This document shows, piece after piece, positions 21,053 to 64,000 of a DNA stretch of 64,000 bases. Every line of letters begins with the position of its first letter. Positions within the stretch are counted from its first letter, which is position 1. This DNA comes from a virus. The notes beneath the pieces were generated by a model. It was not told the origin of the DNA. It saw nothing but the letters and a program-made list of their open reading frames with translations, and did no database searches. A program made the position numbers and the translations under genes. The DNA is taken from IMG/VR virus record IMGVR_UViG_3300046660_000488, positions 408,640 to 472,639 of that record, one strand, 5' to 3'.

Positions 21053-21748
21053 ATGGCGAACGTCTACGAATTCTTCGGTGGTCCGGGCAACCTGAGCAGC
21101 AGTGATCGTGATCGGTTGCTGGCGATGTTCCACGACGCCGGTATCGACGAAGACGAAATTCGTCGTGGCATCGAATTGGATCGCTCCGGATACTGGGAGA
21201 TCGCAGAAGAATTTGGTGGCATCAGCGTCAACGATGCCCGCAACATGGTCCACGAGTTGATCCACAGCCTCCGCAACGACATTGAGGAAAGCTACAACTC
21301 GATGGTCAACGAGGACGACAACGACCGCTACGGCTATGAGAGCGACACGCTGGGCAATGTCACCGTCCGCGACGCTGAAAGCGGCCGTAGCCGCTTCCTG
21401 AAGGGCTCCATTGCGTCCAAGCTGAAGGCTATGCTTGCAGCCCATCCGTCCGGCGAGCAAAACATCATCGCCCAGTTCATGGGTGAAGCACTCGAAGAGA
21501 GCCTGTTCTTCGAGGAAGACGACGACGATTACGCCGGTGAAGTCAACTCGACGCGCGGTACTTACAACTTTCCGTGGACAATTGCCGGAAAACATGGTAC
21601 GGCCACTGCTGATTACAGCGGTCGCGGTGACCCCGATGCAATGACTATCGTTTCCGTCCGAGACGCAAGCGGTAAGGAATTCGACGCGGAAGCCCGTGTT
21701 CTCGCTGAACTGAAGAAGCAGGCTATCGCCTTTATTGGGAACGCATGA
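21053..21748 (+). CDS. hypothetical protein
   Basis: A 231-aa acidic ORF. Confidence 0.45.
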   Translation: MANVYEFFGGPGNLSSSDRDRLLAMFHDAGIDEDEIRRGIELDRSGYWEIAEEFGGISVNDARNMVHELIHSLRNDIEESYNSMVNEDDNDRYGYESDTLGNVTVRDAESGRSRFLKGSIASKLKAMLAAHPSGEQNIIAQFMGEALEESLFFEEDDDDYAGEVNSTRGTYNFPWTIAGKHGTATADYSGRGDPDAMTIVSVRDASGKEFDAEARVLAELKKQAIAFIGNA

Positions 21749-22290
21749 TGGACATGAGAGACCTGTTCGAATCGTCTATCGACGATGAAGAAGACGACGG
21801 CGCGTATCACGACAACGAATCGGATCACGCTGACGCGCTTCAACGGACCGGTTTCTGGGGTTCCGCCGGTGCGGGCCTTGTCTTCTTGTCACGTCGAACC
21901 GGTCGCCTCCTGCTGGCCCACCGTTCGTCTGAAGTCGAGCAGCCCCACACGTGGGGAAACTGGGGCGGCGCTGTAGATCGCTCCGAAATGAAGAACCCGG
22001 CCGCCGCCGCCATGCGCGAGGCCCGTGAGGAAACCGGATATTCCGGAACCATCGACATCGTCCCGGCTTTCCGGTTCCAGTCGGGAAGCTTCCAGTATTT
22101 CAACTTCATCGGCGTCGTCGATAACGAATTCGCGCCGCATCGGAATTGGGAAACCCAAGGCTTTGAATGGTGCGAGTGGGGCCACTGGCCGTCACCGCTG
22201 CATTTCGGCCTCCAAGCCCTGTTCAACGACCCCGCCTCGGCGCGCACGATCAAGACCCTGATCAGCGATTTCCGGTCGCGCCCAGCTTAA
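21745..22290 (+). CDS. NUDIX hydrolase
   Basis: The Nudix box GNWGGAVDRSEMKNPAAAAMREAREETGY is present. The N-terminus MMDMRDLFESS resembles the shared N-terminal peptide of the effector island. Confidence 0.7.
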   Translation: MMDMRDLFESSIDDEEDDGAYHDNESDHADALQRTGFWGSAGAGLVFLSRRTGRLLLAHRSSEVEQPHTWGNWGGAVDRSEMKNPAAAAMREAREETGYSGTIDIVPAFRFQSGSFQYFNFIGVVDNEFAPHRNWETQGFEWCEWGHWPSPLHFGLQALFNDPASARTIKTLISDFRSRPA

Positions 22291-42490: not shown

Positions 42491-43351
42491 ATGAGAGTCG
42501 GAACAAGATCAGTCGCAGACATGTGGCAAACGTCTACTGGATATTTCCAAGTGGCCGCAGGGACAACTGCCCAGCGCCCGACGTCACCACGAAGCGGCAT
42601 GATGCGGTTCAACACCACGTTCCAGAACTATGAATACTACGCCAATGGCGCGTGGTTCCAGAGCCCCAACAACAAATACGACGGCGTCCGAGCGCCCACC
42701 GAGCAAGATTCGTCCGGCTTCGCAATCGGGAGCACATGGTTTTGGGGTGATCGTGTTTTCGTCTGCGTTGACGCGACCTCGGGCTCGGCTGACTGGATGG
42801 AAATTGCAACCGAAATGGACGTTCAGGCGGATCATCCGGGTGTCGCGATTGGTCGGTATTACGGGACTGCAACGGACGGCATGATGTCCACGTACACATT
42901 TTCGGACAGCGTTCTCTATGCGATTCCGTGTCAATTCCCGGCCGGTTACACGTTCAACCGGATCGGTGTTGAAACGATCTCTCGCCATACCGGATACAAC
43001 GTCCGCTTGGGAATCTACAGCAACGTGGACGGGTCGCCAAGTTCCCTGCTGCTCGACGCCGGTATCGTTTCGGCTTCGACGGTCGGTCTCAAGGAAATCG
43101 TCACCAATTTCACGACCGATGGCGACTGGTTCTGGCTGGTGTGCAATTTGCAGACCGACATGATCCTTCGGTCGATGAAATGCCCAAGCTGGGTCGCCGG
43201 TGGGGCGGTCCTCGGGCGGATGGTCAGCGGTGGTGATCCAGTCGTCCGGGTGTCGGCGACGCAAGCCTACGGCCCGCTCCCGTCCACGTTCCCGGCTTCG
43301 AAGACCGCTTCGGCCGACGACGCTCCCCAGCTTTGGCTTCGAAAGGTCTAA
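42491..43351 (+). CDS. tail fibre protein paralog (Phage_fiber_2 repeat plus a shared tip domain)
   Basis: The motif GYFQVAAGTTAQRPTSPRSGMMRFNTTFQNYEYYANGAW is present. The C-terminus LGIYSNVDGSPSSLLLDAGIV...PQLWLRKV is shared with the 41138 gene. Confidence 0.6.
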   Translation: MRVGTRSVADMWQTSTGYFQVAAGTTAQRPTSPRSGMMRFNTTFQNYEYYANGAWFQSPNNKYDGVRAPTEQDSSGFAIGSTWFWGDRVFVCVDATSGSADWMEIATEMDVQADHPGVAIGRYYGTATDGMMSTYTFSDSVLYAIPCQFPAGYTFNRIGVETISRHTGYNVRLGIYSNVDGSPSSLLLDAGIVSASTVGLKEIVTNFTTDGDWFWLVCNLQTDMILRSMKCPSWVAGGAVLGRMVSGGDPVVRVSATQAYGPLPSTFPASKTASADDAPQLWLRKV

Positions 43352-43791
43352 ACGCAGCGCGCGGTCGAGCGCAGCATCCAACGGTGTTTCTGGTGGGTCT
43401 CGATGCGCTCACCAAGGAAATTGGCCAGACCCTGTTGGTTCTCGTCGGTGGCCATCTGGAGCGCGACGGTCATCAGGTCGATCAACGTCTCGTGGGCTTC
43501 CATGAGGGCCAGCAGCACGCCTTGCAGGATGAACGGCTGCGGGTCGATCTCACCGACCATGCTCAGGGCGCTATAGGCCGACAGGGACGCAGGTGCCTTG
43601 GCGTCGAGCGCACGAAGCTGCTCGGCGTGGCGATCAAGTGCTTCCCACTGATCATCGTATTGATCCTTGAACATGCTGTGCAGGCCATAGAAATTCGGCC
43701 CCTCGACATTCCAGTGTGCACCATGGGTGGACAGGTAGACTGAGAAAGCGGTCGCGAGGACTTGCTGCATGATGGCGGTCAATTCTTCCAT
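43348..43791 (-). CDS. Dps-like ferritin / DNA-binding protein from starved cells
   Basis: The start was chosen at MEELTAIMQQ. LATAFSVYLSTHGAHWNVEGPNFYGLHSMFKDQYDDQWEALDRHAEQLRALDA matches the Dps ferroxidase-site pattern. A CACTAAATAC box lies immediately upstream on the minus strand. Confidence 0.6.
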   Translation of the reverse strand: MEELTAIMQQVLATAFSVYLSTHGAHWNVEGPNFYGLHSMFKDQYDDQWEALDRHAEQLRALDAKAPASLSAYSALSMVGEIDPQPFILQGVLLALMEAHETLIDLMTVALQMATDENQQGLANFLGERIETHQKHRWMLRSTARCV

Positions 43792-48459: not shown

Positions 48460-49357
48460 AACTCGCCATGCTATCCCCGGTTTGGTGGCCACCTCACCGA
48501 GGAATTCCTGTGGCCGTTCATCACGGCCGAATGTTCCGGCTACTGGGGGCTCTTTTTCACGAGTGGTCTAATCTCGCTACTAGACAGCCCTTTCCACCGT
48601 GGACGTTAGACCGAATGGGGACCAACCCATCCTTTTTCACGCCCGTCTTGCTTGCGGGTGGGACGCGACCCCCACTGTCTGCATTGCCAACCGGATGAAC
48701 CGGGCTCTCCGCAAATTCTGTTGCCGTTTCCGGCGAATGGCTGACACGGGCAATCCTACTTCCCACCGTCGCGGGTGTCGGATGCTCCTATGAAACCATG
48801 TCGGCCTCGAACCGATCCTCCCCCGATCAGGGGGCACACTACCCGTTGTGCTACAGCTTCCGTGTCCAAAGGGAGTCTATAGCCTCCCAGAGGTTGTTGC
48901 TCATGCGAGCGAATTTTGACCAGCGATTGACATCAGCAGCGCTACTTCAATCACGAACGAGGTGGGGGCGCCAGTCCCCACTTTCCCCAGTGTTTGCTGG
49001 GGTCTTATAAGCTGATAGATCACTCGTTCTACGCTTGGTCGTTCAGCAGTCGGCGCCGCTCAAGAGACAGCACCGTCGCCTACACTTGGATGCCCATGCG
49101 GGCAAATGGTTATGCGCGGGCGGATTTATACCACCGGCCTCCCCGTTGGAAACGGGCTCTCTCGCCCTCCGACCGTTTACTGACAGGTGCGTTTGCAACC
49201 GCGCCCTGCGTTCAACGTATCGAAGCCCAACGACGTCATGGTCACATCCGACTAACGGCGGGTAGTTTACCCCATGCCAGTTCGTTGCCTGAGCTACGCG
49301 CAACTTTGATGCCCATGCGGGCAAATTGGTACGCAGATGGGGTTTCCCGAGGAAACT

Positions 49358-52416: not shown

Positions 52417-52782
52417 ATGGAAATGACTGCGGTACGTTTCACCATGCGACGGATCGACTTCGCCCCCTTCCACGACTGGATGGACGAGCATTACCCCGGA
52501 TGGGCCTACCACGTTGACGTCGGGCCTCTCGACAAAAGCAAAGAGCGCAGCTACCGCGCCGTTCTGGTACAATGCGGTGTGATCGCCGCGCATCCTCGCT
52601 ACATCGACCGTGACCCGCCTCTGGGCGCGGGGATGTCGATCCTGATCCCCGCCGACATGCAGCCCAAGCCGATCACGGAACGATGGGCCTTGCCCGGCTA
52701 TGCGTACGCTTACAAGTGGATTCCGGACATGGGTTGGCGAACCGTGCCGGTGTCAATGCAACTGCCGCTGACCGATAGCTAA
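52417..52782 (+). CDS. hypothetical protein
   Basis: The start at MEMTAVRF has a GGAG SD 6 nt upstream. Confidence 0.4.
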   Translation: MEMTAVRFTMRRIDFAPFHDWMDEHYPGWAYHVDVGPLDKSKERSYRAVLVQCGVIAAHPRYIDRDPPLGAGMSILIPADMQPKPITERWALPGYAYAYKWIPDMGWRTVPVSMQLPLTDS

Positions 52783-53366
52783 GCCGCGATCATGTGCTTG
52801 ATGATCGAAGTGACCTGCATTTCGGTTTCTTCGAGCGTCCCGCCGGTGTCGATGATGAAGTCGGCCATCTTGCGCTTGTCCCGGTCGGGCATTTGCTTGG
52901 CCAAGATCGTCTCGAACACCGCTGCGGTCATGTTCGGTCGAGCAAGCACGCGAGCGCGCTGGACAGAAGCTGGCGCGCTCGCTACCACCACCTTCACGCC
53001 GTCGAGGAATTTCGGCTTGCTCTCGAAGTAGAGCGGGACGTCATAGACAATCATCGGGAAGTAGGTATGCTTGCGCGCGAAGGATTCGTAGCTTTCGGTG
53101 AGCAGCGGCCCGACGAATAGTTCAAGCGCCGTCATCTTCTCCTGATCGTCCAGAACGATGGCGCGCAATTTCTTGCGGTCCACGTGATCCCAGTCGTCCA
53201 GCACGTCGCCGAACATCGACTTGATCTCAAAGGCGTGTTCAGACGAGTAAATCTCGTGCACGGCCGCGTCCGAGCAATGGACGGGGATGCCGTACTGCCG
53301 GAACATTTCGGAGATCGTGGTCTTGCCCATGCCGATGGAACCGGTGAGGACGAGCTTGGTGGTCAT
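52779..53366 (-). CDS. coaE: dephospho-CoA kinase
   Basis: The start is MTTKLVLTGSIGMGKTT, a P-loop in the CoaE position. The 195-aa length and overall CoaE collinearity fit. Confidence 0.75.
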   Translation of the reverse strand: MTTKLVLTGSIGMGKTTISEMFRQYGIPVHCSDAAVHEIYSSEHAFEIKSMFGDVLDDWDHVDRKKLRAIVLDDQEKMTALELFVGPLLTESYESFARKHTYFPMIVYDVPLYFESKPKFLDGVKVVVASAPASVQRARVLARPNMTAAVFETILAKQMPDRDKRKMADFIIDTGGTLEETEMQVTSIIKHMIAA

Positions 53367-53427
53367 GGTGGGCCTCGTGATACACACCAGCCTACCTCCG
53401 CATTGGGAATTTCGTCAACCAGATTCG

Positions 53428-53435
53428 CTAAATAC
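53428..53435 (+). promoter_or_regulatory. late-promoter-like box CTAAATAC abutting the first effector-island operon
   Basis: The box ends 4 nt before ATG 53440. There is no SD, which implies a leaderless or near-leaderless transcript. Confidence 0.45.
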
Positions 53436-53439
53436 GCCC

Positions 53440-54081
53440 ATGCGTGATTTGATCAGCCTCATGGAAAACTACATCGCTGAATGGGGCGATGAAGACGAAG
53501 ATGATCTCGATGGCGAAGGCCATTGGGGAGACGACGATGAAGCGGAAGATGAGCACGATGATCCGACTGAATATCGGACCAACGGCTATGACTTCGGCCG
53601 TCTGGGAAATTTCTATCACCAAGTGGTGGCGGCGGCCGACAGCCAGATGGATTCCGGATCGGAGATCGAGTTTTCCGATGTCCAGAATTGGGTCGAACAT
53701 CACGCTGAACTCTTCCAGCAAGGTACGATCACCGTCTTCCGCACCATGCGGCTACAGCATGGCGTCGTCGAGGCGCTGAAGGCTGGCACGGAGCTTGGCT
53801 CGCACTGGACCTACGAATTTGACGAAAGCGCTCTCGATGCCTTCGACATCAATGGTCAGGACGGTGGAACACTCTACACCTTCGCCGCGACGATCCACAC
53901 CGGGCAGGTCGCCTTCCCGCTGACCGTCGCCTACAACTGCCTCTTCCCAGAAGAGAAAGAAATCTACCCGTTTGGCCATGCGTCGCTGACGCTCATCGGG
54001 ATTTACGAGACCGAAGACATGGAAAACCCGCAGCGGGTGAACCTGCGTCCCGATCTGGTCGGTAAGGAATTTCCAATCTGA
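53440..54081 (+). CDS. effector-island protein 1 (shared N-terminal peptide MRDLISLMEN; acidic linker; unknown domain)
   Basis: The N-terminus is MRDLISLMENY. An acidic stretch follows: DEDEDDLDGEGHWGDDDEAEDEHDD. Confidence 0.55.
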   Translation: MRDLISLMENYIAEWGDEDEDDLDGEGHWGDDDEAEDEHDDPTEYRTNGYDFGRLGNFYHQVVAAADSQMDSGSEIEFSDVQNWVEHHAELFQQGTITVFRTMRLQHGVVEALKAGTELGSHWTYEFDESALDAFDINGQDGGTLYTFAATIHTGQVAFPLTVAYNCLFPEEKEIYPFGHASLTLIGIYETEDMENPQRVNLRPDLVGKEFPI

Positions 54082-55292
54082 TGCGCGAGTTCATCCAAAT
54101 CCTTCGTGAATCCTACCTCACCGATCAGATCAAGCTGGACGACAAGCTTGTCGCCGCCGTCAAGGCGCGCTTGATGAAGGGATCGTTCTACGATTACGAC
54201 ATGCCCTCGGATGAAAGCGAGTTTTTCGACGACGTCGAGGCCGCTTATCACAAGGTGCTCTGGAACACGCTGTTCAAGGACAATGCGGTAACGATCTATC
54301 GCGCCGAGCTTCGGCCGCGCGGTCGCAACTTCGGGTCCGTTGGCATCTATTGGTCGTTCCGCCCGGAAGGGGCTCAGGCGATCTATGGGCACGACCATGG
54401 CCCGGAAATCCACGGCGGCGCGGCACTGCGCGAAATCGTGTTCATGGCGTCGGCGCCGATCACGTCGGTCGATTGGATCGCCACGTTCGCGGCCAACATC
54501 GCCATGCCGAAAGAGCTTGAAATCACGCTCAAGAACAACGCGCCGTTGACCTTGGAGCAAGCGGTCGTCGGCAACCGTAAGACCACGCTGAACATCAAGT
54601 CGTTCGCCAGCAACATCACGCAGTACGACATGATGGAGACGCCGGTCAACGAAGTCGAGATCGGTGGTGGCGTCGAAGTTTCGGACCTCGACGACGATCC
54701 GGGCCACGACTACACGAACAAGCAACGCGATCTCTTCCGCGACACCCCGGCCGGTGAGCCGGAGCTTCCGCAGGGCTACAAGCTGGTCAACCGCGTCGGT
54801 GATTTCTGGGTCGCGCAGTGCCTGAAGAACATGGACCAGCACAGTGTCATGTACGTGTTCATCAAGGATGGCGCGGAGAATGCGGCTGGCTACATCGCCG
54901 CCCATAAGTGGCACATCGACAAGCTGAACTATCGTCACGAAAACATCTACCAGCCCATGTTGGGTGGCAAGGGTCTTCGGGTCGGCGCGGTGTACGTGCG
55001 CGAGCAGTATCGTGGCTCTGACCTGTCCTTGGTGATGTACAAGTGGATGCTGGAGAACGTCTGCGATTACCTGATGGCCGACAGCTTGCAGACCATGGGC
55101 GGCGTCAAGATTTGGAAGAAACTCCAAAGCCGCAAGCCGTTCCACGTCGAGGTCTGGAATGGCAATCAGGACACGACCCGCAAGCACCGTCGCGGCAAAG
55201 ACTTCGACCGCGTCTACGACAACGGCTACATGATCCCTTGGGTCACCATCGACAGCAAGTTGGACATCGTCCACTCCGATCCGTACGAGTAA
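54081..55292 (+). CDS. effector-island protein 2 (N-terminus MREFIQILRE; C-terminal GNAT acetyltransferase)
   Basis: The C-terminus VGAVYVREQYRGSDLSLVMYKWMLENV is GNAT-like. The ATG overlaps the upstream stop (TGATG). Confidence 0.55.
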   Translation: MREFIQILRESYLTDQIKLDDKLVAAVKARLMKGSFYDYDMPSDESEFFDDVEAAYHKVLWNTLFKDNAVTIYRAELRPRGRNFGSVGIYWSFRPEGAQAIYGHDHGPEIHGGAALREIVFMASAPITSVDWIATFAANIAMPKELEITLKNNAPLTLEQAVVGNRKTTLNIKSFASNITQYDMMETPVNEVEIGGGVEVSDLDDDPGHDYTNKQRDLFRDTPAGEPELPQGYKLVNRVGDFWVAQCLKNMDQHSVMYVFIKDGAENAAGYIAAHKWHIDKLNYRHENIYQPMLGGKGLRVGAVYVREQYRGSDLSLVMYKWMLENVCDYLMADSLQTMGGVKIWKKLQSRKPFHVEVWNGNQDTTRKHRRGKDFDRVYDNGYMIPWVTIDSKLDIVHSDPYE

Positions 55293-55299
55293 TGCAACC

Positions 55300-55758
55300 A
55301 TGGACATCCGCACCGCCATCAACCTGTTTGAACACGCGCCACCGCCGCCAGTCCGCAAGCACCTGCTGGCGGCCATCGCCCATGCGGACATCTACGGTGA
55401 TGCGAAATGGAAGCTAAGCCAGTTCGATCTGAAATACGTCGGGTTCCTGTCGGTCGAAGAGATCGCTCATTATGACGACGTGCATGGATGGATGGACGTT
55501 CAACAACCAAGTGATTTGGCCAATTTCCGTGACGGCGATTTCTATTTCCCTCCGGGCGAGCGCATGCCGCCTGTCATCCTGATTACGGCACCGGATGGTG
55601 AGGCAGATAGTTCGTCGCGCTTGCACAACGGCAAGGTCGCAGGCGGCTGCATGACGCAGATTGGCGATGGTCGCGGACGCATCAACTACGCTAACGCGCA
55701 CAAAGAACGCCTTCACGTCTATCACATGATCTTCAAAGGCTGCGGAGAACAAGTTTAG
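55300..55758 (+). CDS. effector-island protein 3 (N-terminus MDIRTAINLFEH)
   Basis: A 152-aa ORF in the same operon. Confidence 0.45.
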   Translation: MDIRTAINLFEHAPPPPVRKHLLAAIAHADIYGDAKWKLSQFDLKYVGFLSVEEIAHYDDVHGWMDVQQPSDLANFRDGDFYFPPGERMPPVILITAPDGEADSSSRLHNGKVAGGCMTQIGDGRGRINYANAHKERLHVYHMIFKGCGEQV

Positions 55759-55775
55759 ATTCGAGCGCTGTAGTA

Positions 55776-55807
55776 CATTGACATGCAGACCGCAGTGTGT
55801 ATGCTCT
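55776..55807 (+). promoter_or_regulatory. sigma70-like promoter TTGACA-N16-TATGCT
   Basis: ttgacatgcagaccgcagtgtgtatgctc lies directly upstream of ATG 55813. Confidence 0.35.
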
Positions 55808-55812
55808 GCACC

Positions 55813-56742
55813 ATGGACACCAGCATCTTCACGTCGATCAACGCCTGTGAACGGATCGCCGCACGGACGATACGCAACCTTGCCATATCCAGAACCCATC
55901 CGAGCGTCAGCCTGCTCGACGTTCTGAAGCCATCGTTTCACCGCATCTACGCCGCTGGCAAGCTCACCCGCGATGAACTCGCGGCCGTGACGCGCAAGGT
56001 CCGCGACAAGCTCAATCAGAGCGAAGCGGTGGTCAAGAACACGCTGATCATCGGCAACAAGCTCAGCACCCGCGACATGAACGAGGGGCAGATCGTCTGC
56101 CTGCAAGGCGCGGGCGAACAGTGGCTGGAAATGTGGGGCGTCGGCGTGATGATGTCGCGCAAGCGCATCGTCGTGTTCTCGGCGCCAGCCGAATTCAAAG
56201 TGCACCGCCACGCGCTCACCCGCTACATGGGCGGCGAGCTTCAGTATCCCGAGCACCTTGCCGCGAAACTGCTGGACGCGGCTCAACTGTCGATCCCGAT
56301 CATGGCGGCCATCCTCGCCCACCGGACGGACGACAACCTCGCCATTCCGGTCGGCGACGGCATGCTGTTTGGCAAGATCAAGCTCTTCGACGGCTACGGC
56401 GAATTCATGACCGTCCGCACGGGCCAGAACGGCGTGGGCATGGTCCCGCGTCGGCGTTCGGGGATGCTGAAGGACAGTACGACCGAAGCCAACATGATGA
56501 CCTATGTGGACGCCGACCGGATGGTCGAGTCTCGCGTTGAACTGCATGGCCTGCTCAGCGAGTTTGCCGCCAAGCACCACCGCATCTGCGCGGCGATCTT
56601 CGAGGACTGTGTGTTCGAGACGAACCGCCCCTACCAGAAAGCCATCATCGACGAATTGCAGGAGGATGCCCGCAAGCTGGTGACCAGTCCGACGTGGTCA
56701 CAGTTCGCGGGCACGGCCAACCGGGTCACCACCAGCGCTTAG
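55813..56742 (+). CDS. hypothetical protein
   Basis: The start at MDTSIFTSIN lies within track ORF 55783..56742. Confidence 0.45.
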   Translation: MDTSIFTSINACERIAARTIRNLAISRTHPSVSLLDVLKPSFHRIYAAGKLTRDELAAVTRKVRDKLNQSEAVVKNTLIIGNKLSTRDMNEGQIVCLQGAGEQWLEMWGVGVMMSRKRIVVFSAPAEFKVHRHALTRYMGGELQYPEHLAAKLLDAAQLSIPIMAAILAHRTDDNLAIPVGDGMLFGKIKLFDGYGEFMTVRTGQNGVGMVPRRRSGMLKDSTTEANMMTYVDADRMVESRVELHGLLSEFAAKHHRICAAIFEDCVFETNRPYQKAIIDELQEDARKLVTSPTWSQFAGTANRVTTSA

Positions 56743-56911
56743 GCGCTGGCTTGACCCACGGCTTGTCGCTCTTCCACGTGTGCTTGTTCAGGGTGTCGTC
56801 TTCGGGACGCCGTCCACCGATGGCCTTGGCCAGTTTCTTGAGGTTGTCGCCTCGCGCTTCGGCGTAATAGGTGTGGGACTTGACCCACAGTTCGCAGTAG
56901 AAACCACGCAT
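56726..56911 (-). CDS. hypothetical small basic protein
   Basis: A 61-aa ORF. A CCTAAATAGAGCCATGCG box lies about 90 nt upstream on the minus strand. Confidence 0.35.
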   Translation of the reverse strand: MRGFYCELWVKSHTYYAEARGDNLKKLAKAIGGRRPEDDTLNKHTWKSDKPWVKPAPKRWW

Positions 56912-57040
56912 AGTCTTTCTCCATAGCTCCGCACCGCACTGATTTGCGGTTTCAACGGAGTCATAGGAGAGGGAGTTATGGTGCTTGACGCATGGCTCTA
57001 TTTAGGATGTGGGCGCCATTGCTGACGCCCACACGGCCCA

Positions 57041-57976
57041 TTATTTCAGAGGGTAGACGCGGACGTAGTCCACGGTCATGGCCGCCGGGTAGACGCCCTT
57101 GGCCGGGTCACCGGCCGTGATGTCGCTCACCGCGACGTTCATCAGCAGGTACATCGGCTTGTCGTAGGCGAACGGCGTGCGATAGACCTCGACGTTGTTG
57201 ATGTAGAACACCAGTTCAGTCGGGGTCCACAGGACGCCGTAGGTGTTGAAGTTGGTCGTCGCCGTGGGCACGGTCGGCTGAGGCTTGGGCGACAGGGCTG
57301 TCTCGTTGCCGGTGACGCCGACGTGCACGGTGATGTTGTCCACGTTGGTGCGGTTCAGCGGCACGCCCTTCATGACCTGAATGGTCTTGTGCGGCCCGGC
57401 ATAGTGTTCGAGCACATCGATCTCCGGCAGGCGCCCGCCATTGGTCGCGGTCTTCTCGACCGGGAGCAGCCAGAACGCCGCCCACGTGCCGTCAGCCTTC
57501 GGCATCACCGCGCGCCATTCCCAGTAGCCGTAGGTCTGGGTGAAGCTGCGCTGGGTGGTCAGCAGGCCGCTGATGAAGTTGCGCGAGCCTTGGCCGCACG
57601 TTTTCTTCACGTAATCGGTGGCGCGGATGACGTTGATGCTCAGGTTGCCGTTGCCCTGATAGAAGACGTTCTGCCCGCAGTACTCGGTGTCCACGTAGAC
57701 CTGTTGCTCGCCGGTCAGGGCGCGCGACGAGAACTGTTCGGTCATGGTCAGCGGGCGGCTGGCCTTCTCACGCTGGTTGCCGAAGTAATAGTCGGTCTTC
57801 CAGACGCCCTTCGGGTTCTTTGTGCTCAGCGTGTCCAGCGGCGTGCCGTTTGGGGCGTTGAACTCAGCAGCAAAGGTTGGGGTCGGATTGAGGATCGAGC
57901 GATCCAGTGTGGCAGACATGGCTGGCGTACAAAGCATCAGAGCAATGGCCGCCGAAATGGCTTTCAAAAATTTCAT
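57041..57976 (-). CDS. secreted glycoside hydrolase family 16 (beta-glucanase/laminarinase-like)
   Basis: The signal peptide is MKFLKAISAAIALMLCTPAMSA. The GH16 catalytic motif LPEIDVLEH (ExDxxE) is present. Confidence 0.7.
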   Translation of the reverse strand: MKFLKAISAAIALMLCTPAMSATLDRSILNPTPTFAAEFNAPNGTPLDTLSTKNPKGVWKTDYYFGNQREKASRPLTMTEQFSSRALTGEQQVYVDTEYCGQNVFYQGNGNLSINVIRATDYVKKTCGQGSRNFISGLLTTQRSFTQTYGYWEWRAVMPKADGTWAAFWLLPVEKTATNGGRLPEIDVLEHYAGPHKTIQVMKGVPLNRTNVDNITVHVGVTGNETALSPKPQPTVPTATTNFNTYGVLWTPTELVFYINNVEVYRTPFAYDKPMYLLMNVAVSDITAGDPAKGVYPAAMTVDYVRVYPLK

Positions 57977-57977
57977 G

Positions 57978-58062
57978 ATATATTGGCTCCAAAAATTCAA
58001 GCCAATAGTAGTACAGTATTTACTATACTGTCAACATGAACGTTTACAGTTGTCAACGGTCG
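57978..58062 (-). promoter_or_regulatory. AT-rich promoter region for the GH16 gene (TTGACA-N18-TACTAT plus an embedded GTAAATAC box)
   Basis: On the minus strand: TTGACAgtatagtaaatactgtacTACTAT...GGAGCCaatatatcATG. The composition is strongly AT-shifted compared with the genome. Confidence 0.4.
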
Positions 58063-58254
58063 CTATCCATTGATGACGCGGACGTACACGGCTCGAAGAC
58101 GTCCGCTGGAGGTCATCTTTACGCGGAAAGTCACCACCTGTCCTTCGGAGTAGCACTTGCCTTTGCCGATGAGAAAAATGGGTCCGCCACCATCGGACGG
58201 GGTGATCATCCCGAAACCGCGAGAGTCTTTGAACCACTTGATTTGCCCGAACAT
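58063..58254 (-). CDS. cold-shock protein (CspA family)
   Basis: MFGQIKWFKDSRGFGMITPSDGGGPIF carries the RNP1-like KGFGFI motif. Confidence 0.65.
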   Translation of the reverse strand: MFGQIKWFKDSRGFGMITPSDGGGPIFLIGKGKCYSEGQVVTFRVKMTSSGRLRAVYVRVING

Positions 58255-58316
58255 GCGCGGGCCGGGGAGCGTAGGGGTCATCCCATCAGCCTACCAAATC
58301 TGGTAAACGAAACCCA

Positions 58317-58324
58317 CTAAATAC
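58317..58324 (+). promoter_or_regulatory. late-promoter-like box CTAAATAC
   Basis: The box ends 4 nt before ATG 58329. Confidence 0.45.
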
Positions 58325-58328
58325 GGAC

Positions 58329-58694
58329 ATGCGTTGGAACGAGATCATCACCGAAAGTGAAGTGCCGTGGGTCGATAATGCGACCAACACGTTGAGCGTC
58401 GGATCGACGACGCTGGAATTTGACCTGTATCGCAACGACGTGCAGATCAAAGACCTCGACACGCCGGTCGCCGACCGTGGTCAGGGCCAAGCACGCAAGG
58501 CCATGCTGATGCTGGCCGCCAAAGCCGATCAGGTCGGTGCCAAGATTTCGCTGCTGTCCTACCCGCAGGATGAAGTCACAAAGCAGGGACAGTTGAACAA
58601 ATTCTATCGCTCGCTTGGCTATAAGGCCATCCGCAAGTACCCGGACGGCGACGTGCTGATGGTTCGTCAGCCGAAAACGCCAAAAGGCGCTTGA
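58329..58694 (+). CDS. effector-island protein 4 (N-terminus MRWNEIITES; small GNAT acetyltransferase)
   Basis: VADRGQGQARKAMLMLAAKADQVGAKISLL...KFYRSLGYK. Confidence 0.55.
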   Translation: MRWNEIITESEVPWVDNATNTLSVGSTTLEFDLYRNDVQIKDLDTPVADRGQGQARKAMLMLAAKADQVGAKISLLSYPQDEVTKQGQLNKFYRSLGYKAIRKYPDGDVLMVRQPKTPKGA

Positions 58695-59002
58695 CACTCA
58701 GGCCGCGTATGGTAGTGTGCGTTTCTCACTGAAGTAGGTGAGCGGACTGCTCCACCTCGGTGGAGAACATGCACCATTAACCGCCGCCTCGTCGCCGGAA
58801 GAATGATCGGTAGTTCCTTTGGGCTATGCCTCACGGCAACGATCTTTGGAAGGTTTGGACAAGACGAGGCTGTAGTGACGCTGCGAAAGCAGAGAGTAGC
58901 CGCACCAAACCCGGCTAGGCGGGACGTCATATCGTGACATCGGAAGGCTGTCTGATCCAGAGGTCAGACGGCGCGGTCCACAAGCTGAACACGACAGCAG
59001 GA

Positions 59003-59031
59003 AGGGCGGGGAGCAATCTCCGCCTTTTTTC
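59003..59031 (+). terminator. rho-independent terminator ending a roughly 330-nt non-coding stretch
   Basis: GGCGG-ggagcaatct-CCGCC followed by TTTTTTCTATTT. Confidence 0.45.
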
Positions 59032-59464
59032 TATTTGGCTGTCTTCTGTAGAGTGCGCGCATGAGCCAGACCGCCACACCTCCGTCTGAATACCTGCCCA
59101 GAACCGCCGTGGAAGCGCTCGTGCGCGCCAATGCGAATGGACACACGCCGGAGCGCGCTCAAGGCGCCGAGCACTGGCGGTGCAGCACCTGCGGCTATGT
59201 CGCCTCGCAAGTTCGCTGGTGGCCGATCACTTGCGAGGCCACGTCCACGTCCTCCGCGTGAAATAATGGAAGAACGGTCGGTCGAAGGCGATGTTCACCA
59301 AGCCTTTGCCCAGAATTTTCAACAGCAGCCACCGCGTGTCGAGTGACATGCGGCCGGTAAATGGTTTTCCGAAGGCGATGCAACGAACGCTGTGAAAGAT
59401 CACGCGCCATTCGTTCTTACTGATAGCTCTCATCAGCAACCTGTGCTGTATCAAGAGCAAACCG

Positions 59465-59746
59465 TCAAGAGTCGATAGCCCACCAAATCGCTTCGTCGGA
59501 CTCGCGATCCTCGACCGTGGGGTCATCGTGGAAGCCGATGATGTTCTTCTGCTTCATGCGCGTCGGGAAATAGACGCAGCCGCACGACGAGCAGATGTTC
59601 GCATCGGTGATCACCGGGATGATGTCGGGTGCGACTTCCGCAATTTCGGAAAGCTGAGAGTGGTGGATTTTGGCCTGACGGTTCAACGTCGGGCGCTCGC
59701 AGTTACGATTAGGGCAGGGCTTGTTCTGCTTCGAGCGGTGGGCCAT
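59465..59746 (-). CDS. hypothetical Cys-rich protein
   Basis: A 93-aa ORF with CPNRNCE...CSSCGC. Confidence 0.35.
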   Translation of the reverse strand: MAHRSKQNKPCPNRNCERPTLNRQAKIHHSQLSEIAEVAPDIIPVITDANICSSCGCVYFPTRMKQKNIIGFHDDPTVEDRESDEAIWWAIDS

Positions 59747-59761
59747 GATCGTATTTATGGA

Positions 59762-59769
59762 CTAAATAT
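59762..59769 (+). promoter_or_regulatory. late-promoter-like box CTAAATAT
   Basis: The box ends 4 nt before ATG 59774. Confidence 0.45.
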
Positions 59770-59773
59770 TGCC

Positions 59774-60640
59774 ATGCGCGAGTACATCAACATCGTAGAA
59801 TCCAACACCTATCCCATCAAGGGTGGAACGGTTCAGGTCGTGACCCGAGAACTGCGGGGCAATCGCTACAGCTTCACGGCCACGGTCGATGGACAGCGAG
59901 CCGCCATCGGTGAATTCCAAGCGCAAGACTCGATGAATGGCGACAAGGGATCGGTGGAAGAGATCACTGTCGCTGCGGCGTTCCGGCGCCGTGGGATCGC
60001 CTCGGCGATCTACAGCCATTTCGAGAAGATGGGCTTCACCGTTGTTCCATCCGATGATGTCCGGCCGGATGGCCAAGCGTTTTGGAAGAGCCGTCCGCTG
60101 ACGGAGTTGTCGCGGCCGGTCTTCATAGATGAAGTCGATCCGATCTTGAAGAAAGCCGGGTGGACCCGCGTCGGCTCTGGCTACTATGCCTCCGTCTACG
60201 CCAAGGAAGGCGTGAACTACGTCCTCAAGCTGTTCAGCAATCACGACAAAGGCTACATCGATTTCCTGAAGCTTGTTCAGCAGCATCCGAACAAGCACTT
60301 CCCCACGCTCCGTGGCCTGCCGCGTCGGATCACGTCGGGATACACGGCGGTCCGCATGGAGAAACTTCTGCCAGCCGGTTATGGTGACGACGTGCCAAGC
60401 CTTGGCGTCTACCTGCTCTGCCGCGACACCGGTCCCTATGCCAAGAACCAGTATCAGGTGAAGGCCTACGAGCACGTGGTGGAATATCTCCAGAGCCAGC
60501 CGGAACTGAAACGCGCCCTCGACTTGATCATCGACAATCTGCTTCCCAAATACAACGAAGACCTGCACAGTGAGAATTTCATGAAGCGCGCTGACGGAAC
60601 GCTGGTCATCATCGACCCGGTCGGTTTCGTTCGGAAATAG
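59774..60640 (+). CDS. effector-island protein 5 (N-terminus MREYINIVES; GNAT acetyltransferase fused to a protein-kinase-like/aminoglycoside-phosphotransferase-like domain)
   Basis: The GNAT part is EEITVAAAFRRRGIASAIYSHFEKMGF. The kinase-like part has a G-loop WTRVGSGYYASVYAKEG, a Lys in VLKLF, and a catalytic-loop-like LHSENFMKRADGTLVIIDPVGF. Confidence 0.55.
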   Translation: MREYINIVESNTYPIKGGTVQVVTRELRGNRYSFTATVDGQRAAIGEFQAQDSMNGDKGSVEEITVAAAFRRRGIASAIYSHFEKMGFTVVPSDDVRPDGQAFWKSRPLTELSRPVFIDEVDPILKKAGWTRVGSGYYASVYAKEGVNYVLKLFSNHDKGYIDFLKLVQQHPNKHFPTLRGLPRRITSGYTAVRMEKLLPAGYGDDVPSLGVYLLCRDTGPYAKNQYQVKAYEHVVEYLQSQPELKRALDLIIDNLLPKYNEDLHSENFMKRADGTLVIIDPVGFVRK

Positions 60641-60679
60641 GCAGGTTGACCGGTCGAGGCTATGTGGTAAACCAACGCC

Positions 60680-60940
60680 ATGCAGCTTTCGTTTGATGAA
60701 TGGTGCGGCTCTGTCCGCGACAGGTTCGAGAAGACGTTCGGGTACACCGCCCCGAGGTCGCCATCGCTTGTCGAACTGGACAGCCGGGTGCAGGAACGGA
60801 TCATGCGCTGTGGCGTCGAGGCCCATCGTTTCGGCCTTGAGCATTACGACGAAATGGCTGTGCTCGCGCACCACACGCTGATCCTCGAAGACGTCAAGGC
60901 CGGAATGTCGAACAGCCATATGCGGTACGTGGCGCCTTAG
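60680..60940 (+). CDS. hypothetical small protein
   Basis: An 86-aa ORF. Confidence 0.35.
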   Translation: MQLSFDEWCGSVRDRFEKTFGYTAPRSPSLVELDSRVQERIMRCGVEAHRFGLEHYDEMAVLAHHTLILEDVKAGMSNSHMRYVAP

Positions 60941-61422
60941 ATTGTCGCCGGGATATTTGTGGCGATGGTCTTGTCCGTCTCGATGTCATAGAACCGGGCG
61001 ATTACAACCCGTGAACCGGGGCGAAGCGTGATCTCTTGATCGCTATCCCACCATCCAATGGCGCGCGCCATCGTTTCCGGCCAGTTGATAGCCGCCTGCG
61101 GAACGGTAACTTGCATCACGTAGTCGCCGTAATGGACGTCGGCATTTGTCTCGGGTGCAATGGCCCAGTGGATGCCGAGTTTGTTGCGATTGACGCTCGT
61201 CGTCGGCAGTCGCCGATAGAGGGTGACGTTCCCTTCGGACCACGGTTTCAATGCGGCTGACAATTCTTGTGTCCGGCCGACCATCCACTCGTCGAAGTCG
61301 TCAAACGCAAGTTTGTAGTTGTGGTAGAGACCACGAAGATCACCGGGGCCATAGCGGAAAGCATTGAGCACGGTATCCGGCGTAACGTCGGCCAAACTCT
61401 CGTTGATCTCATTGTATCGCAT
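60937..61422 (-). CDS. effector-island protein 6 on the minus strand (N-terminus MRYNEINESL)
   Basis: The start at 61422 lies immediately after GCTAAATATGGG on the minus strand, which matches the same box arrangement. Confidence 0.5.
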   Translation of the reverse strand: MRYNEINESLADVTPDTVLNAFRYGPGDLRGLYHNYKLAFDDFDEWMVGRTQELSAALKPWSEGNVTLYRRLPTTSVNRNKLGIHWAIAPETNADVHYGDYVMQVTVPQAAINWPETMARAIGWWDSDQEITLRPGSRVVIARFYDIETDKTIATNIPATI

Positions 61423-61459
61423 CCCATATTTAGCTGTTTGAGCGTGATGTTCCTGAAGC

Positions 61460-61467
61460 CTAAATAC
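61460..61467 (+). promoter_or_regulatory. late-promoter-like box CTAAATAC
   Basis: The box ends 4 nt before ATG 61472. The divergent minus-strand box lies at 61426..61433. Confidence 0.45.
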
Positions 61468-61471
61468 TGCC

Positions 61472-61888
61472 ATGCGCGAATTCATCAATCTCCTAGTCGA
61501 AGCCCAAATGTACCTCGGTGACAAGGGTACGACTTACTGGAACCATGCTGGCAAGTACGAAGCCGAAATGGGCAAGCTTTGGAAGGAACTGGTTCCCGGT
61601 TCCGGCCCGGCCGAAACACTCGCTGGCGAAGTGCTGCGCTGTGTCTCCAAAATCTACTACCGCCATTTCAATGACGGCGATTCGTTCACCGTGGACAGCT
61701 TCGCGTTCCTGAAGAAGAACATCGGCCATTTCACGACGTACGACGAAATGGTTGACCGTGCGGTCGAATTCGCGATGGACCCTGAGCACCAAGCCATGGC
61801 CAACAACTTCGACAGCGTGCGCGAACTCAAAATCTACGAAGGTCCCGAGTCAGGTTACGACGACGACGAGGATGAAGACGAGTACTGA
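61472..61888 (+). CDS. effector-island protein 7 (N-terminus MREFINLLVE; acidic C-terminal tail)
   Basis: A 138-aa ORF with C-terminus DDDEDEDEY. Confidence 0.5.
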   Translation: MREFINLLVEAQMYLGDKGTTYWNHAGKYEAEMGKLWKELVPGSGPAETLAGEVLRCVSKIYYRHFNDGDSFTVDSFAFLKKNIGHFTTYDEMVDRAVEFAMDPEHQAMANNFDSVRELKIYEGPESGYDDDEDEDEY

Positions 61889-61891
61889 TCC

Positions 61892-62551
61892 GTGCGCGAA
61901 TTCATCACCCTCATCGAGAGCGGCACAGCCGCTGAAGCATTTGACGACTGGTTCGGCAACAGCCGTGTGGTTGATGGTGACGGTCGGCCGCTGATCGTCT
62001 TCCACGGCACGAACCAACCGTTCGAGCAGTTCTCCAAGGCGCGCGGCGGCATGGCCACTGGCCCGCAGGCTGGTGCCATCCACGGGTTCTTCTTCACGAG
62101 CACCGAAGCGGAAGCTTGGGATTATGCCAAGCACGCCGGGAGCAAGGTCGTATCCGGTATCGACCATTTCGAGCAGGAGACGGAACGTCTGCGTTTGGAG
62201 CAGGAACGTCTTGAAAAGCTTGCCCAGCGCACGAACAAGAAATCGGACTGGGATGCGTTCTATGCCGCCTACCAGAATTGGGAAGATTTCGAGATAAATG
62301 CCACGCGCGAGGAAGACGATGTCGGCAACCGCGTCGTCAAGGCCTACCTGTCGCTCCAGAACCCTCTGGAGGTCAATTTCAACGGCACGATGCAGTCTGA
62401 GGCTGGCGTCATCCAAGACGTGGTCGAGAAGGCCGTACGCGACGGCAATGACGGCGTGATCATGCGGAACATCTACGACGGCCCGTATGGCGGCCACACG
62501 AGCGACCACTTCGTCGCGTTCTCACCCGATCAGATTCATCAGGTTGGCTGA
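61892..62551 (+). CDS. effector-island protein 8 (N-terminus V/MREFITLIES; H-Y-E class ADP-ribosyltransferase-like)
   Basis: The GTG start overlaps the upstream stop. RPLIVFHGTNQPFEQFS...GFFFTSTEAEAW matches the [FY]HGT motif of diphtheria-toxin/PARP-like ARTs. Confidence 0.5.
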   Translation: MREFITLIESGTAAEAFDDWFGNSRVVDGDGRPLIVFHGTNQPFEQFSKARGGMATGPQAGAIHGFFFTSTEAEAWDYAKHAGSKVVSGIDHFEQETERLRLEQERLEKLAQRTNKKSDWDAFYAAYQNWEDFEINATREEDDVGNRVVKAYLSLQNPLEVNFNGTMQSEAGVIQDVVEKAVRDGNDGVIMRNIYDGPYGGHTSDHFVAFSPDQIHQVG

Positions 62552-63420
62552 TGCGCTATCGCGAACTCATCGAGGCGGCAAGCGACGAGCCACCGTTCAA
62601 GAAACCCAAGGGCGTTCGCACACCGGCCTTCACCAAGGACGGGCGCCGCATCATCCTGTCGAAAGGTTACATGAGCGTCGATGCCATGATCGACGGCAAG
62701 CCTGCCGGGAACATGCAGATCAGCAGCCCGAGCGACGGCGGACTAGGCTACAGCAATCGGTTCTACGTCAACCGGGTGTGGGTCGAGGAAGAATTCCGTG
62801 GACAAGGCGTGGCCACGGCCATGTACGATTTCGCCTTCCGAGCCGGTTTCAGGCCACTGGGAATGAGCCGCACGCTCACCGACCAAGGTAAGGCGTTCTG
62901 GGACGACCACGTTCGCAAGAAGGCGTCCAAAGGTCTCGGCCGCGACTATCACAGCGATTATCCGAACCGGTTCCACTGGCGACCGTTGCCGATGTCTGAA
63001 GACATCATCAGCGAAGGCAAGGTTCATCAACTGGATACGGGCTACGGTGGAAACGTGCGAATGACGCTCATCTACCAGAATCCGTCTCCCGTTCAAGCAC
63101 AGACAATGGCCAAGAACCAGATGGACCGGTACAACGGCCTTCTGTACCTTCGTGGGATCATGTCCAACGGATCGACGGTCTATGTCGCCGATGGCTGGGC
63201 CTGCACCCATGACGATCTGATGCAGAATTTCTTCCCCGGCAAGAGTGAGAGCGACGAGCGCTTCACGACGTTCGAGATCGCCAACTATGCGGGCGGCAGT
63301 TACGGCGCCGACAGGACCACGTTCCCAGCGAAGGTCGGCGTGGTCAAAGCGGGACATTTCGACGTCGAAACGAACCCGCAGATCGCGAAGATCATCGCCG
63401 GATGCCGGGCGGTCAACTAG
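62551..63420 (+). CDS. effector-island protein 9 (N-terminus MRYRELIEAA; N-terminal GNAT acetyltransferase)
   Basis: VWVEEEFRGQGVATAMYDFAFRAGFRPLG. Confidence 0.5.
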   Translation: MRYRELIEAASDEPPFKKPKGVRTPAFTKDGRRIILSKGYMSVDAMIDGKPAGNMQISSPSDGGLGYSNRFYVNRVWVEEEFRGQGVATAMYDFAFRAGFRPLGMSRTLTDQGKAFWDDHVRKKASKGLGRDYHSDYPNRFHWRPLPMSEDIISEGKVHQLDTGYGGNVRMTLIYQNPSPVQAQTMAKNQMDRYNGLLYLRGIMSNGSTVYVADGWACTHDDLMQNFFPGKSESDERFTTFEIANYAGGSYGADRTTFPAKVGVVKAGHFDVETNPQIAKIIAGCRAVN

Positions 63421-63866
63421 GTCCGGCCGATGGTCAGATGGAAGTGCCGCTTTTCGGGCGGAAGGCCGTAGCGCTCTCGCACGGCCGCAAGTTCGTCGGA
63501 CTCCACGTTAAGCCACCAATGCGCGCCATTCGTATAGATGTCGTGCGTGTACTTGATCGCAATTTCCTCGCCATCGTCCGCACCCCAGAGCGCCGGTGTT
63601 GAAAGCGTCTCGCCGCGAATGACCGACACGTGCGCGCCCCACTTCGAGCGGTGGTGCAGGCCGATCCCAAACCGCACGCGGATCATGTCGGCATAGTACC
63701 GGGCGATCTCGTCATCGACCTGAAGCAGCAACCAGTCGTCGGCGTAGCGCAGCGTTCCCACGACGTCATGTACATACGCGGCATTCTCCCGGTCACGGTA
63801 GGTCGTGATCAGTCGTCCGAATTTGCTCCCAAGGATATGGGTTCCGTGGATGGTGTTTACGAACAT
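63417..63866 (-). CDS. 2H phosphoesterase superfamily protein (LigT / cyclic phosphodiesterase-like)
   Basis: Two H-x-[ST]-x motifs are present: GAHVSVIRG and RHFHLTIGR. Confidence 0.55.
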   Translation of the reverse strand: MFVNTIHGTHILGSKFGRLITTYRDRENAAYVHDVVGTLRYADDWLLLQVDDEIARYYADMIRVRFGIGLHHRSKWGAHVSVIRGETLSTPALWGADDGEEIAIKYTHDIYTNGAHWWLNVESDELAAVRERYGLPPEKRHFHLTIGRT

Positions 63867-63886
63867 GGTACACCCTTAATACCATG

Positions 63887-63894
63887 CTAAATAT
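63887..63894 (+). promoter_or_regulatory. late-promoter-like box CTAAATAT
   Basis: The box ends 4 nt before ATG 63899. Confidence 0.45.
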
Positions 63895-63898
63895 TGCC

Positions 63899-64000
63899 AT
63901 GCGAGATTTGATCAACATCATGGAGGATGCTCAGCAAGAGCAGTTGACTCCGCCGCCCGTTCTCTACCACGGAACGACGCCCTACAACGCGGCTCTGATC
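63899..64000 (+). CDS. effector-island protein 10, partial (N-terminus MRDLINIMED; ART or Tpt1/KptA-like PPVLYHGT motif)
   Basis: MRDLINIMEDAQQEQLTPPPVLYHGTTPYNAALI. YHGT near the N-terminus resembles diphtheria toxin (SSYHGTKPGYVDSI). PP..LYHGT also resembles KptA. The gene is truncated by the window. Confidence 0.45.
   Translation, partial: MRDLINIMEDAQQEQLTPPPVLYHGTTPYNAALI

Follow-up and report, generated by a model that had tools for sequence, protein, structure and literature searches.

We analysed a 64,000-nucleotide (nt) stretch of viral DNA (IMG/VR record IMGVR_UViG_3300046660_000488, positions 408,640 to 472,639), hereafter the window, in which an island beginning at 53.4 kb encodes proteins with mostly unrelated bodies that start with the same type of short peptide. 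At least 14 genes carry this N-terminal tag when the island is followed past the window end, and the tag, typically M-R-x-x-x-[LI]-x-E, is conserved as a protein sequence and lies outside the folded domains. We consider it likely that the shared N-terminus is a capsid (prohead-core) targeting propeptide, cleaved by a Peptidase_S77 protease, that loads late-made host-modifying enzymes for injection.

Tagged genes are named g plus their start position, with m for the minus strand (e.g. g61422m). Ten N-termini quoted in a first-pass annotation of this DNA are all present in the open reading frame (ORF) listing and in our reading of the sequence at 53.4-64.0 kb. A Logan contig (L009), identical to the window from 51892 on, was used to read the island past the window end; gene 10 is completed there and three more tagged genes follow. 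The features are as follows, with a slash after the Glu of each tag:

Gene 1, g53440, 53440..54081, plus strand, 213 amino acids (aa): tag MRDLISLME/N, then an acidic stretch and a C-terminal R...ExE domain resembling ADP-ribosyltransferases (ARTs)
Gene 2, g54081, 54081..55292, plus strand, 403 aa: tag MREFIQILRE/S; N-terminal R...ExE ART-like domain, GNAT-like C-terminal half
Gene 3, g55300, 55300..55758, plus strand, 152 aa: tag MDIRTAINLFE/H; body with no Pfam or PHROG match
Gene 4, g58329, 58329..58694, plus strand, 121 aa: tag MRWNEIITE/S; GNAT-like
Gene 5, g59774, 59774..60640, plus strand, 288 aa: tag MREYINIVE/S; GNAT domain and kinase-like C-terminal half
Gene 6, g61422m, 60937..61422, minus strand, 161 aa: tag MRYNEINE/S; probable ART fold with conserved R...ExE
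Gene 7, g61472, 61472..61888, plus strand, 138 aa: tag MREFINLLVE/A; acidic C-terminal tail
Gene 8, g61892, 61892..62551, plus strand, 219 aa, GTG start: tag (M)REFITLIE/S; ART-PolyVal (PARP-like ART)
Gene 9, g62551, 62551..63420, plus strand, 289 aa: tag MRYRELIE/A; GNAT domain and a C-terminal domain with no match
Gene 10, 63899..64000 (cut by the window end), plus strand: tag MRDLINIME/D; full gene at L009 12008-12526, 172 aa
Extension gene, L009 12534, 242 aa: tag MRAHEIFE/T
Extension gene, L009 16024, 166 aa: tag MDIRNSISLIE/S; GNAT-like, by weak similarity only
Extension gene, L009 19305, minus strand, 193 aa: tag MRYSQIVNE/D; ART-PolyVal (Pfam, 1.6e-7)
Candidate member outside the island, 21745..22290, plus strand: NUDIX hydrolase (Pfam, 8.5e-13), start MMDMRDLFE/S
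Untagged neighbour, 63417..63866, minus strand: 2H phosphoesterase (2H-SAK; Pfam 1.6e-5, just below the cut-off), N-terminus MFVNTIHG

The tags fall into three classes: M-R-[DE]-[FLY]-I-x-[LI]-x(0-1)-x-E (class A), M-R-[WYA]-x-[EQ]-[IL]-x(0-1)-x-E, and M-D-I-R-x-x-I-x-L-x-E, the last of which is found in g55300 and recurs at L009 16024 and in gp205 of Agrobacterium phage Atu_ph07. Leu or Ile stands two residues before the Glu in 13 of the 14 island tags, one extension gene having V-x-E, and the Glu lies at residue 8-11 in all 14, which bears out the (L/I)-x-E ending proposed earlier over a range slightly wider than the residues 8-10 then given. A six-frame scan of the window yielded 696 ATG starts that are followed by 60 codons or more, of which seven match ^MR.{2,6}[LI].E, and all seven sit at 53.4-62.6 kb; with crude gene calls, [LI]xE ending at residue 5-13 is found in 10 of 19 island genes vs 5 of 55 elsewhere (p = 2e-4). 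A chance origin of the island tags is excluded.

Behind the tag the proteins have one or two domains each. Although the genes had been described as paralogous, a pairwise all-against-all BLASTP of the bodies returns two weak links only, and the tagged proteins are not one family: their bodies are mostly unrelated. The accompanying description of one peptide on unrelated catalytic domains holds, with ART folds, GNATs, a GNAT plus kinase-like protein and proteins of unknown type among the bodies, and so does that of a 2H phosphoesterase adjoining the tagged genes. The g61892 protein exceeds the Pfam gathering threshold for ART-PolyVal (PF18760, 7e-18), and the structural matches of its AlphaFold2 model are PARP catalytic domains, RES/ParT/MbcT toxins and a cyanophage pre-ejectosome protein. 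The g53440 protein aligns with the toxin-like ART family of g61422m, whose placement with the R-S-E type (cholera/pertussis-toxin-like) ARTs is tentative. Pfam Acetyltransf_1 (PF00583, cut-off 20.7 bits) is matched by g59774 (21.8 bits) and g62551 (28.7 bits). The GNAT assignments of g58329, the L009 16024 gene and the C-terminal half of g54081 come from weak similarity: g54081 has only a sequence motif and a marginal BLASTP link (E = 0.016) to g62551, and g58329 has tblastn matches to an annotated GNAT of phage HRDY3 and to gp210 of Pseudomonas phage Lu11 as well as a weak BLASTP match to Atu_ph07 gp63. In the C-terminal half of g59774 we recognise by eye GSGxxAxV (a Gly-rich loop), VLK, DLHSEN and IID motifs; the Kinase-PolyVal match is sub-threshold (E = 0.029, 14.8 bits vs a cut-off of 27), the Phage_T7_kinase match is faint, and this half found no match among PDB sequences. 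The completed gene 10 protein holds 'VLYHGT' and has a weak Tpt1/KptA-like match only, while g61472 gives weak tblastn matches to hypothetical proteins of other phages. Searches of Pfam and PHROGs returned none for g53440, g55300, g61422m, g61472, the L009 12534 protein or the C-terminal domain of g62551, an ART profile run against PDB sequences found nothing useful, and the island had no megablast match among 50,697 phage records. The g54081 protein has an identical counterpart, P0148, in the record of a 578,292-bp contig. The start of the NUDIX gene is tag-like, as had been noted, and reads MMDMRDLFES in full; capsid proteins of relatives begin MSKLFES, and by its start the gene is a possible member of the tag family.

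The window also holds T4-like sheath, tube, large terminase subunit (TerL), gp32 and UvsX genes, and its TerL is 56-57% identical to those of Sinorhizobium phage Phosso (469 kb) and Atu_ph07 (490 kb). By sequence, the phage is a member of the Atu_ph07/Phosso lineage of jumbo phages; its earlier description as clearly T4-like is right for the core genes, but it is an Atu_ph07-like jumbo or mega phage rather than a T4-like phage in the narrow sense. Peptidase_S77 and gp23-type capsid genes are both found in the relatives Atu_ph07, L010 and L011; in Atu_ph07 these are gp204 (Peptidase_S77, 1.4e-21) and gp215 (Gp23 family capsid protein, 1e-92), and the protease has more than 8000 homologues, many on 300-870 kb contigs. 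The gp21-like protease sought by the first-pass annotation is thus encoded in relatives, though not in the window itself.

Proteins of this head module have starts of a similar kind. In Atu_ph07 and two metagenomic relatives, the protease begins MSTKLTE or MANFLTE/A, the scaffold METGFEKLLE/G or MNQGLKELLE/S, and the capsid protein MSKLFE/S, followed by PLME/N or PLME/T right before the Gp23 domain. Small proteins encoded right after the protease begin MDFRQIRALLE/G (gp205) and MSIRKFLNIINE/S (gp206) in Atu_ph07, and MRAHELFE/S, RKFMNLME/S and MRIKEIVE/S in L010. In T4, gp21 cuts after L/I-x-E, and head targeting needs no more than the first 10 residues of IPIII (PMC9026906); the T4 N-termini, read from NC_000866, are MKTYQEFIAE/A (IPII and IPIII), MAKINELLRE/S (gp24), MLKEQLIAE/A (gp22), MNEPQLLIE/T (gp21) and MELITE/L (Alt). 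The island tags share the layout of these substrates, in agreement with the proposed match to the gp21 motif and to the architecture of the T4 capsid-targeting sequence (CTS).

Attai et al. 2018 reported a virion mass spectrometry (MS) table of Atu_ph07 (PMC6102473), which we used as a proxy. Our comparison covers gp1-369 (282 of 490 kb), with the N-termini of gp1-229 taken from annotated coordinates and the 182-282 kb region (gp230-369) scanned for tag-bearing ORFs that were matched to annotated starts; a tag counted as strict if it had R or K in second position and an [LI]xE whose Glu fell at residue 5-13. Such a tag is carried by 17 of 100 virion proteins vs 5 of 269 non-virion proteins (p = 5.9e-7), and the enrichment persists when gp53-63, being paralogues, are counted as a single family (p = 0.013). 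The strict-tag virion proteins are gp43, gp47, gp53-63, gp67, gp196, gp199 and gp305, with tags such as MRLIDLLE/S (gp43), MRYKDLKLNE/D (gp47), MRLFQLLE/T (gp63) and M[RK]W[EHDQN][QD]L[TNI]E (gp53-63, e.g. MRWEQLTE/S); gp205 and gp206 have no R or K at residue 2, yet are virion proteins. Enzymes are among them, gp53 having a Zeta-toxin/P-loop kinase domain and gp196 an amidoligase domain, and the tagged virion protein gp63 has an N-terminal domain that resembles the GNAT-like island proteins. Two NUDIX proteins, gp238 and gp303, are represented by one virion peptide each. The capsid-targeting reading is supported indirectly, because most strict-tag Atu_ph07 proteins, 17 of 22 within gp1-369, are in virions, and to that extent, by tag, the earlier idea of a head-packaged enzyme battery gains ground. 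Moreover, gp53 (87 kDa; L005 39484-41820, minus strand) is most abundant in a gel band of roughly 20-kDa proteins, and gp205, gp63, gp44 (86 kDa) and gp108 (98 kDa) also peak in bands far below their predicted mass (Table S5, PMC6102473), which suggests proteolytic processing.

Two observations on individual Atu_ph07 genes stand apart from this comparison. A 138-codon ORF at 262141 on the minus strand (in L032) starts MRYWLILME/N and is annotated as the 48-aa gp331 from a downstream start, so that a tagged protein may have been mis-annotated here. A toxin-like ART identity of gp53-63 was considered and dropped after gp56, compared by hhalign with the profile of that family, gave a negative result.

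The same MS table could be explained by a tag that is never cleaved and serves as a signal for virion incorporation or assembly, for example by docking to another virion structure, rather than as a signal for head-internal effectors. The table speaks to virion presence only, a tail-fibre-like protein is among the products of the gp43-67 cluster of Atu_ph07, and virions of these phages bear whiskers. We nevertheless regard an uncleaved handle as unlikely: the invariant part of the tag is the protease motif [LI]-x-E, positioned as in proven T4 substrates; similar tags occur on the protease-adjacent proteins, the scaffold and the capsid protein, whereas the tail proteins of Atu_ph07 (sheath, tube, baseplate and fibre) have none; and ARTs have no obvious role on the virion exterior.

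In structure models the tag is the sole low-confidence N-terminal segment, with a predicted local distance difference test score (pLDDT) below 50 at residues 1-9 of g61892 and averaging 65 at residues 1-10 of g61422m, whose whole-model mean is 91.7. A short, probably amphipathic peptide outside the fold might have another role, as a degron or handle for phage Clp chaperones and proteases, as an oligomerisation helix or as a temporary inhibitor of toxic enzymes; several Clp-family proteins are encoded in the lineage, and ARTs may need restraint late in infection. Such roles could coexist with capsid targeting, but by themselves they leave the gp21-motif match, the tags of the head module and the detection in virions unexplained, and we judge them quite improbable as the tag's function.

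Conservation could also reside in the nucleotides, as an alternative named in the first-pass annotation would have it. Across six class-A tags, nucleotide identity at codon positions 1, 2 and 3 is 0.76, 0.87 and 0.51, and 16 of 52 codon pairs for identical residues differ in codon. The tag is constrained at the protein level, because third codon positions vary most and synonymous codons are used. A conspicuous nucleotide element does accompany the tags: CTAAATA occurs 16 times in the window vs 0.86 expected, at the following sites:

53428..53434, plus strand: 5 nt before ATG 53440
58317..58323, plus strand: 5 nt before ATG 58329
59762..59768, plus strand: 5 nt before ATG 59774
61427..61433, minus strand: 4 nt before ATG 61422
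61460..61466, plus strand: 5 nt before ATG 61472
63887..63893, plus strand: 5 nt before ATG 63899
Remaining sites: 13538, 26573, 24421, 38639, 39118 and 42419, and, on the minus strand, 6543, 321, 43803 and 57005

On L009, CTAAATA again lies 4-5 nt from the ATG at 19305 (minus strand), and the related ATAAATA lies 5 nt before 16024, so that [CA]TAAATA stands 4-5 nt before the ATG in 8 of the 14 tagged genes. The tail sheath and TerL genes also have the box upstream, with leaders of ordinary length, and gp32 and UvsX do not; the box is probably the late promoter of this phage. For comparison, the late promoter of T4, TATAAATA, lies at -13 to -6 (PMC1524935), and in the Rak2-like phage CBB the late promoter is presumed to be an ATAAATA motif found before structural genes (PMC5259590). 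With T4 late-promoter geometry, a box 4-5 nt before the ATG would put the first transcribed base at the A of that ATG, and we infer by this analogy that the box-abutting genes give leaderless late mRNAs.

A signal in the DNA or RNA, whether an initially transcribed region, a leaderless-translation signal or a homology patch for cassette shuffling, with a peptide of no role, would fit these boxes, up to about 20 nt being shared across promoter and start, and the same [ACG]TAAATA-N4-5-ATG layout recurs in L001, L002 and L009. The box layout does not explain the tag, however, because five tagged genes, each closely behind the preceding gene, have no box and are tagged all the same (the start of g54081, itself box-less, overlaps the stop codon of the gene upstream, as does that of g62551), and because a ferritin-like gene (43348-43791, minus strand; Pfam 4e-23) has the CTAAATA-N5-ATG layout and no tag, serving as a negative control. 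Atu_ph07 tags follow ordinary leaders with Shine-Dalgarno sites, and homologues of other nucleotide composition retain [LIV]-x-E. Together with the codon-position test, these observations make a purely nucleotide-level origin very improbable.

Several observations concern the box itself. The gene at 43803 (minus strand) was first taken as tagged (MEELTAIMQ), but that N-terminus belongs to the ferritin-like domain; a ferritin-like gene is an odd find among the late genes of a phage. A scan of IMG/VR for TAAATA-N5-ATGCGNGANTTNATC returned 16 loci, roughly the estimated chance level, few of which look real; this weak yield suggests that the clade is poorly represented there or that the pattern is too strict. 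On IMG/VR contigs of 44% GC (L024, L030), ATAAATA-N5-ATG precedes genes for proteins of 508 aa (MREFINLIEQLNEN) and 488 aa (MREIDKIAENLFDK), at L024 3916-5442 and 11301-12767 (both minus strand); the 488-aa protein matches phrog_13484, annotated as a virion structural protein, which also matches window positions 33662-35332.

Homologues show the same constraint across larger distances. Most ART-PolyVal homologues, down to 37% identity, retain M-R-x-x-x-x-[LIV]-x-E while individual residues drift, with a variable linker between the tag and the conserved FxxWFGNS start of the domain. In the toxin-like ART family, sampled from a library clustered at 50% identity, nearly all members at 21-39% identity to the query in the alignment begin MR[QKTHD][FW]I[DTSN][IL]x[ET] or similar. 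Many further tagged genes, several of them ART-PolyVal, surround the homologues on L001 (a 637-kb ENA contig) and L002. That the [LIV]-x-E pattern persists amid such drift implies purifying selection on the pattern, not recent copying, and a functionless remnant of gene-start duplication or recombination that spread one 5' end is scarcely credible, even though the genes are clustered and adjacent ones have nearly identical starts.

Capsid targeting has points against it too. The [LI]-x-E motif is short, and about 9% of unrelated N-termini carry it by chance; some tagged proteins are acidic and as long as 403 aa, vs the small basic internal proteins of T4; and the S77 protease and capsid genes lie outside the 64-kb window, the best 120 protease homologues giving no link to this contig. 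As for the proxy, paralogues make up 11 of the 17 tagged Atu_ph07 virion proteins, five Atu_ph07 proteins that match the tag loosely went undetected in virions, and the data bear on virion presence only, not on head interior, tag cleavage or ejection. In addition, tblastn of the ART and of a concatenate of eight tagged proteins against cultured phages gave scattered weak hits, with no orthologues in Atu_ph07 or Phosso; since the window enzymes are almost without Atu_ph07 orthologues, the proxy goes by tag, not by protein. We still find the targeting propeptide the probable explanation.

With the tag as a functional equivalent of the T4 CTS, the system would operate as follows. Tagged genes would be transcribed late, with the structural genes, from [CA]TAAATA boxes, as leaderless mRNAs where the box lies 4-5 nt from the ATG. 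The tag would carry each enzyme into the assembling prohead scaffold core, where the gp21-type (Peptidase_S77) protease would cut after the Glu of [LI]-x-E, leaving a mature enzyme that starts at residue 9-12 inside the head. At the next infection, PARP-like and toxin-like ARTs, GNATs and the kinase-like protein would be ejected with the DNA and would act on host targets ahead of all phage gene expression. For this phage we infer the targeting, the cleavage, the delivery into the host cell and the host targets.

More tentatively, and with somewhat less than even confidence, we propose that M-R-x-x-x-[LI]-x-E is a portable capsid-loading code in a mostly uncultivated clade of jumbo and mega phages (300-870 kb contigs), often present as a compact promoter-plus-tag cassette by which captured genes become injected effectors. 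If so, the injected proteome could be read from sequence, and would amount to dozens of ARTs, acetyltransferases and kinases per genome, far beyond T4. The injected proteins of huge phages are known chiefly from T4 and the phiKZ group, and a recognisable tag would let such arsenals be predicted for thousands of metagenomic genomes, would nominate enzymes of first-minute host takeover or anti-defence (ARTs, GNATs, kinases), and would offer a handle by which foreign proteins could be loaded into the heads of jumbo phages, a use to which the T4 CTS is already put. The box-abutting-ATG layout, for its part, would mean that a proteobacterial phage makes a class of late mRNAs without leaders.

Other features were observed in the window and in the lineage. 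Three untagged genes stand among the tagged ones:

57041-58000, minus strand: GH16 glycoside hydrolase with a signal-peptide-like N-terminus
58063-58281, minus strand: cold-shock domain protein
52779-53387, minus strand: CoaE-like dephospho-CoA kinase

Elsewhere in the window we noted:

337-1857, minus strand: tetratricopeptide repeat (TPR) protein with a weak glycosyltransferase-9 match
8550-9827, minus strand: histidyl-tRNA-synthetase-like protein
31160-33088, plus strand: SPFH/Band7-domain protein of 642 aa, downstream of the terminase gene
46.9-50.2 kb: little coding signal; tRNA-like element found by ARAGORN at 48791-48860 (minus strand), anticodon unassignable

In L011 (a Joint Genome Institute contig of 572,229 bp from a mega-phage relative), the portal gene contains an intein, and the major capsid gene is followed within a few kb by genes for an IS605-type TnpB and TnpA.

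Among known systems, T4 is the closest in principle: its CTS is likewise a short peptide, of about 6-10 residues with L/I-x-E at the end, and the proteins that bear it are otherwise unlike, T-even internal proteins having only a CTS in common (PMC3012670). A gp21-family protease in the lineage, predicted late expression and predicted ART cargo that parallels Alt extend the likeness. However, the tag sequences are not homologous (M-R-x-x-x-[LI]-x-E here vs MKTYQEFIAE); at least 14 predicted cargo genes lie within about 20 kb here, with dozens in relatives; the predicted cargo consists mostly of enzymes of 121-403 aa, some of them acidic, vs small basic anti-restriction proteins in T4; and many genes here have their own promoter box against the ATG.

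The polyvalent proteins described by Iyer, Burroughs, Anand, de Souza and Aravind in 2017 combine ART-PolyVal, Kinase-PolyVal, GNAT, NUDIX and 2H-SAK domains and are predicted to be injected (PMC5512222). The island draws on the same domain families, Kinase-PolyVal weakly, and has the same predicted delivery with the DNA. Theirs are single giant polypeptides of 2-15 domains, often with MuF- or portal-associated anchors, whereas the proteins here are separate, of one or two domains, each with a short tag. In the phiKZ-like phages (phiKZ, 201phi2-1, SPN3US), a diverged gp21-related protease removes propeptides after Glu (PMC9026906); these too are jumbo phages with many packaged proteins, as is predicted here, but they form another lineage, their propeptides are long rather than one shared decapeptide, and their cargo is largely non-enzymatic or consists of virion RNA polymerase subunits. 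Atu_ph07, from a related lineage, has the same tag class (MRWEQLTE, MRLIDLLE, MDFRQIRALLE) and some enzymes, but its tagged bodies are mostly another paralogue family and its leaders are ordinary Shine-Dalgarno ones.

In Pseudomonas phage Lu11 (NC_017972, 155.4-163.7 kb; L008), at least eight adjacent genes (gp204, gp206, gp208 and gp210-214) share a MKIQLAVA, MKIQLALA or MRIQLAVA start, and the N-terminal parts of their bodies look unrelated. From its sequence, this set looks like an analogous tag system with another peptide; if the capsid-loading code is real, unrelated tags of this kind would mean repeated evolution of the strategy. The main text of Attai et al. 2018 contains no 'N-termin', 'paralog' or 'conserved motif' (PMC6102473), and we found no description of a shared tag in the literature searched. 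The earlier statement that such an arsenal had not been described as a unit appears to hold for its breadth and enzymatic cargo, and is overstated as to the principle, since T4 already establishes tag-based head loading through proteins that share only a CTS. What appears to be new, next to T4, is the sequence of the tag, used widely across a large clade of jumbo and mega phages, the scale and enzymatic nature of the cargo, and the layout in which the promoter box abuts the ATG.

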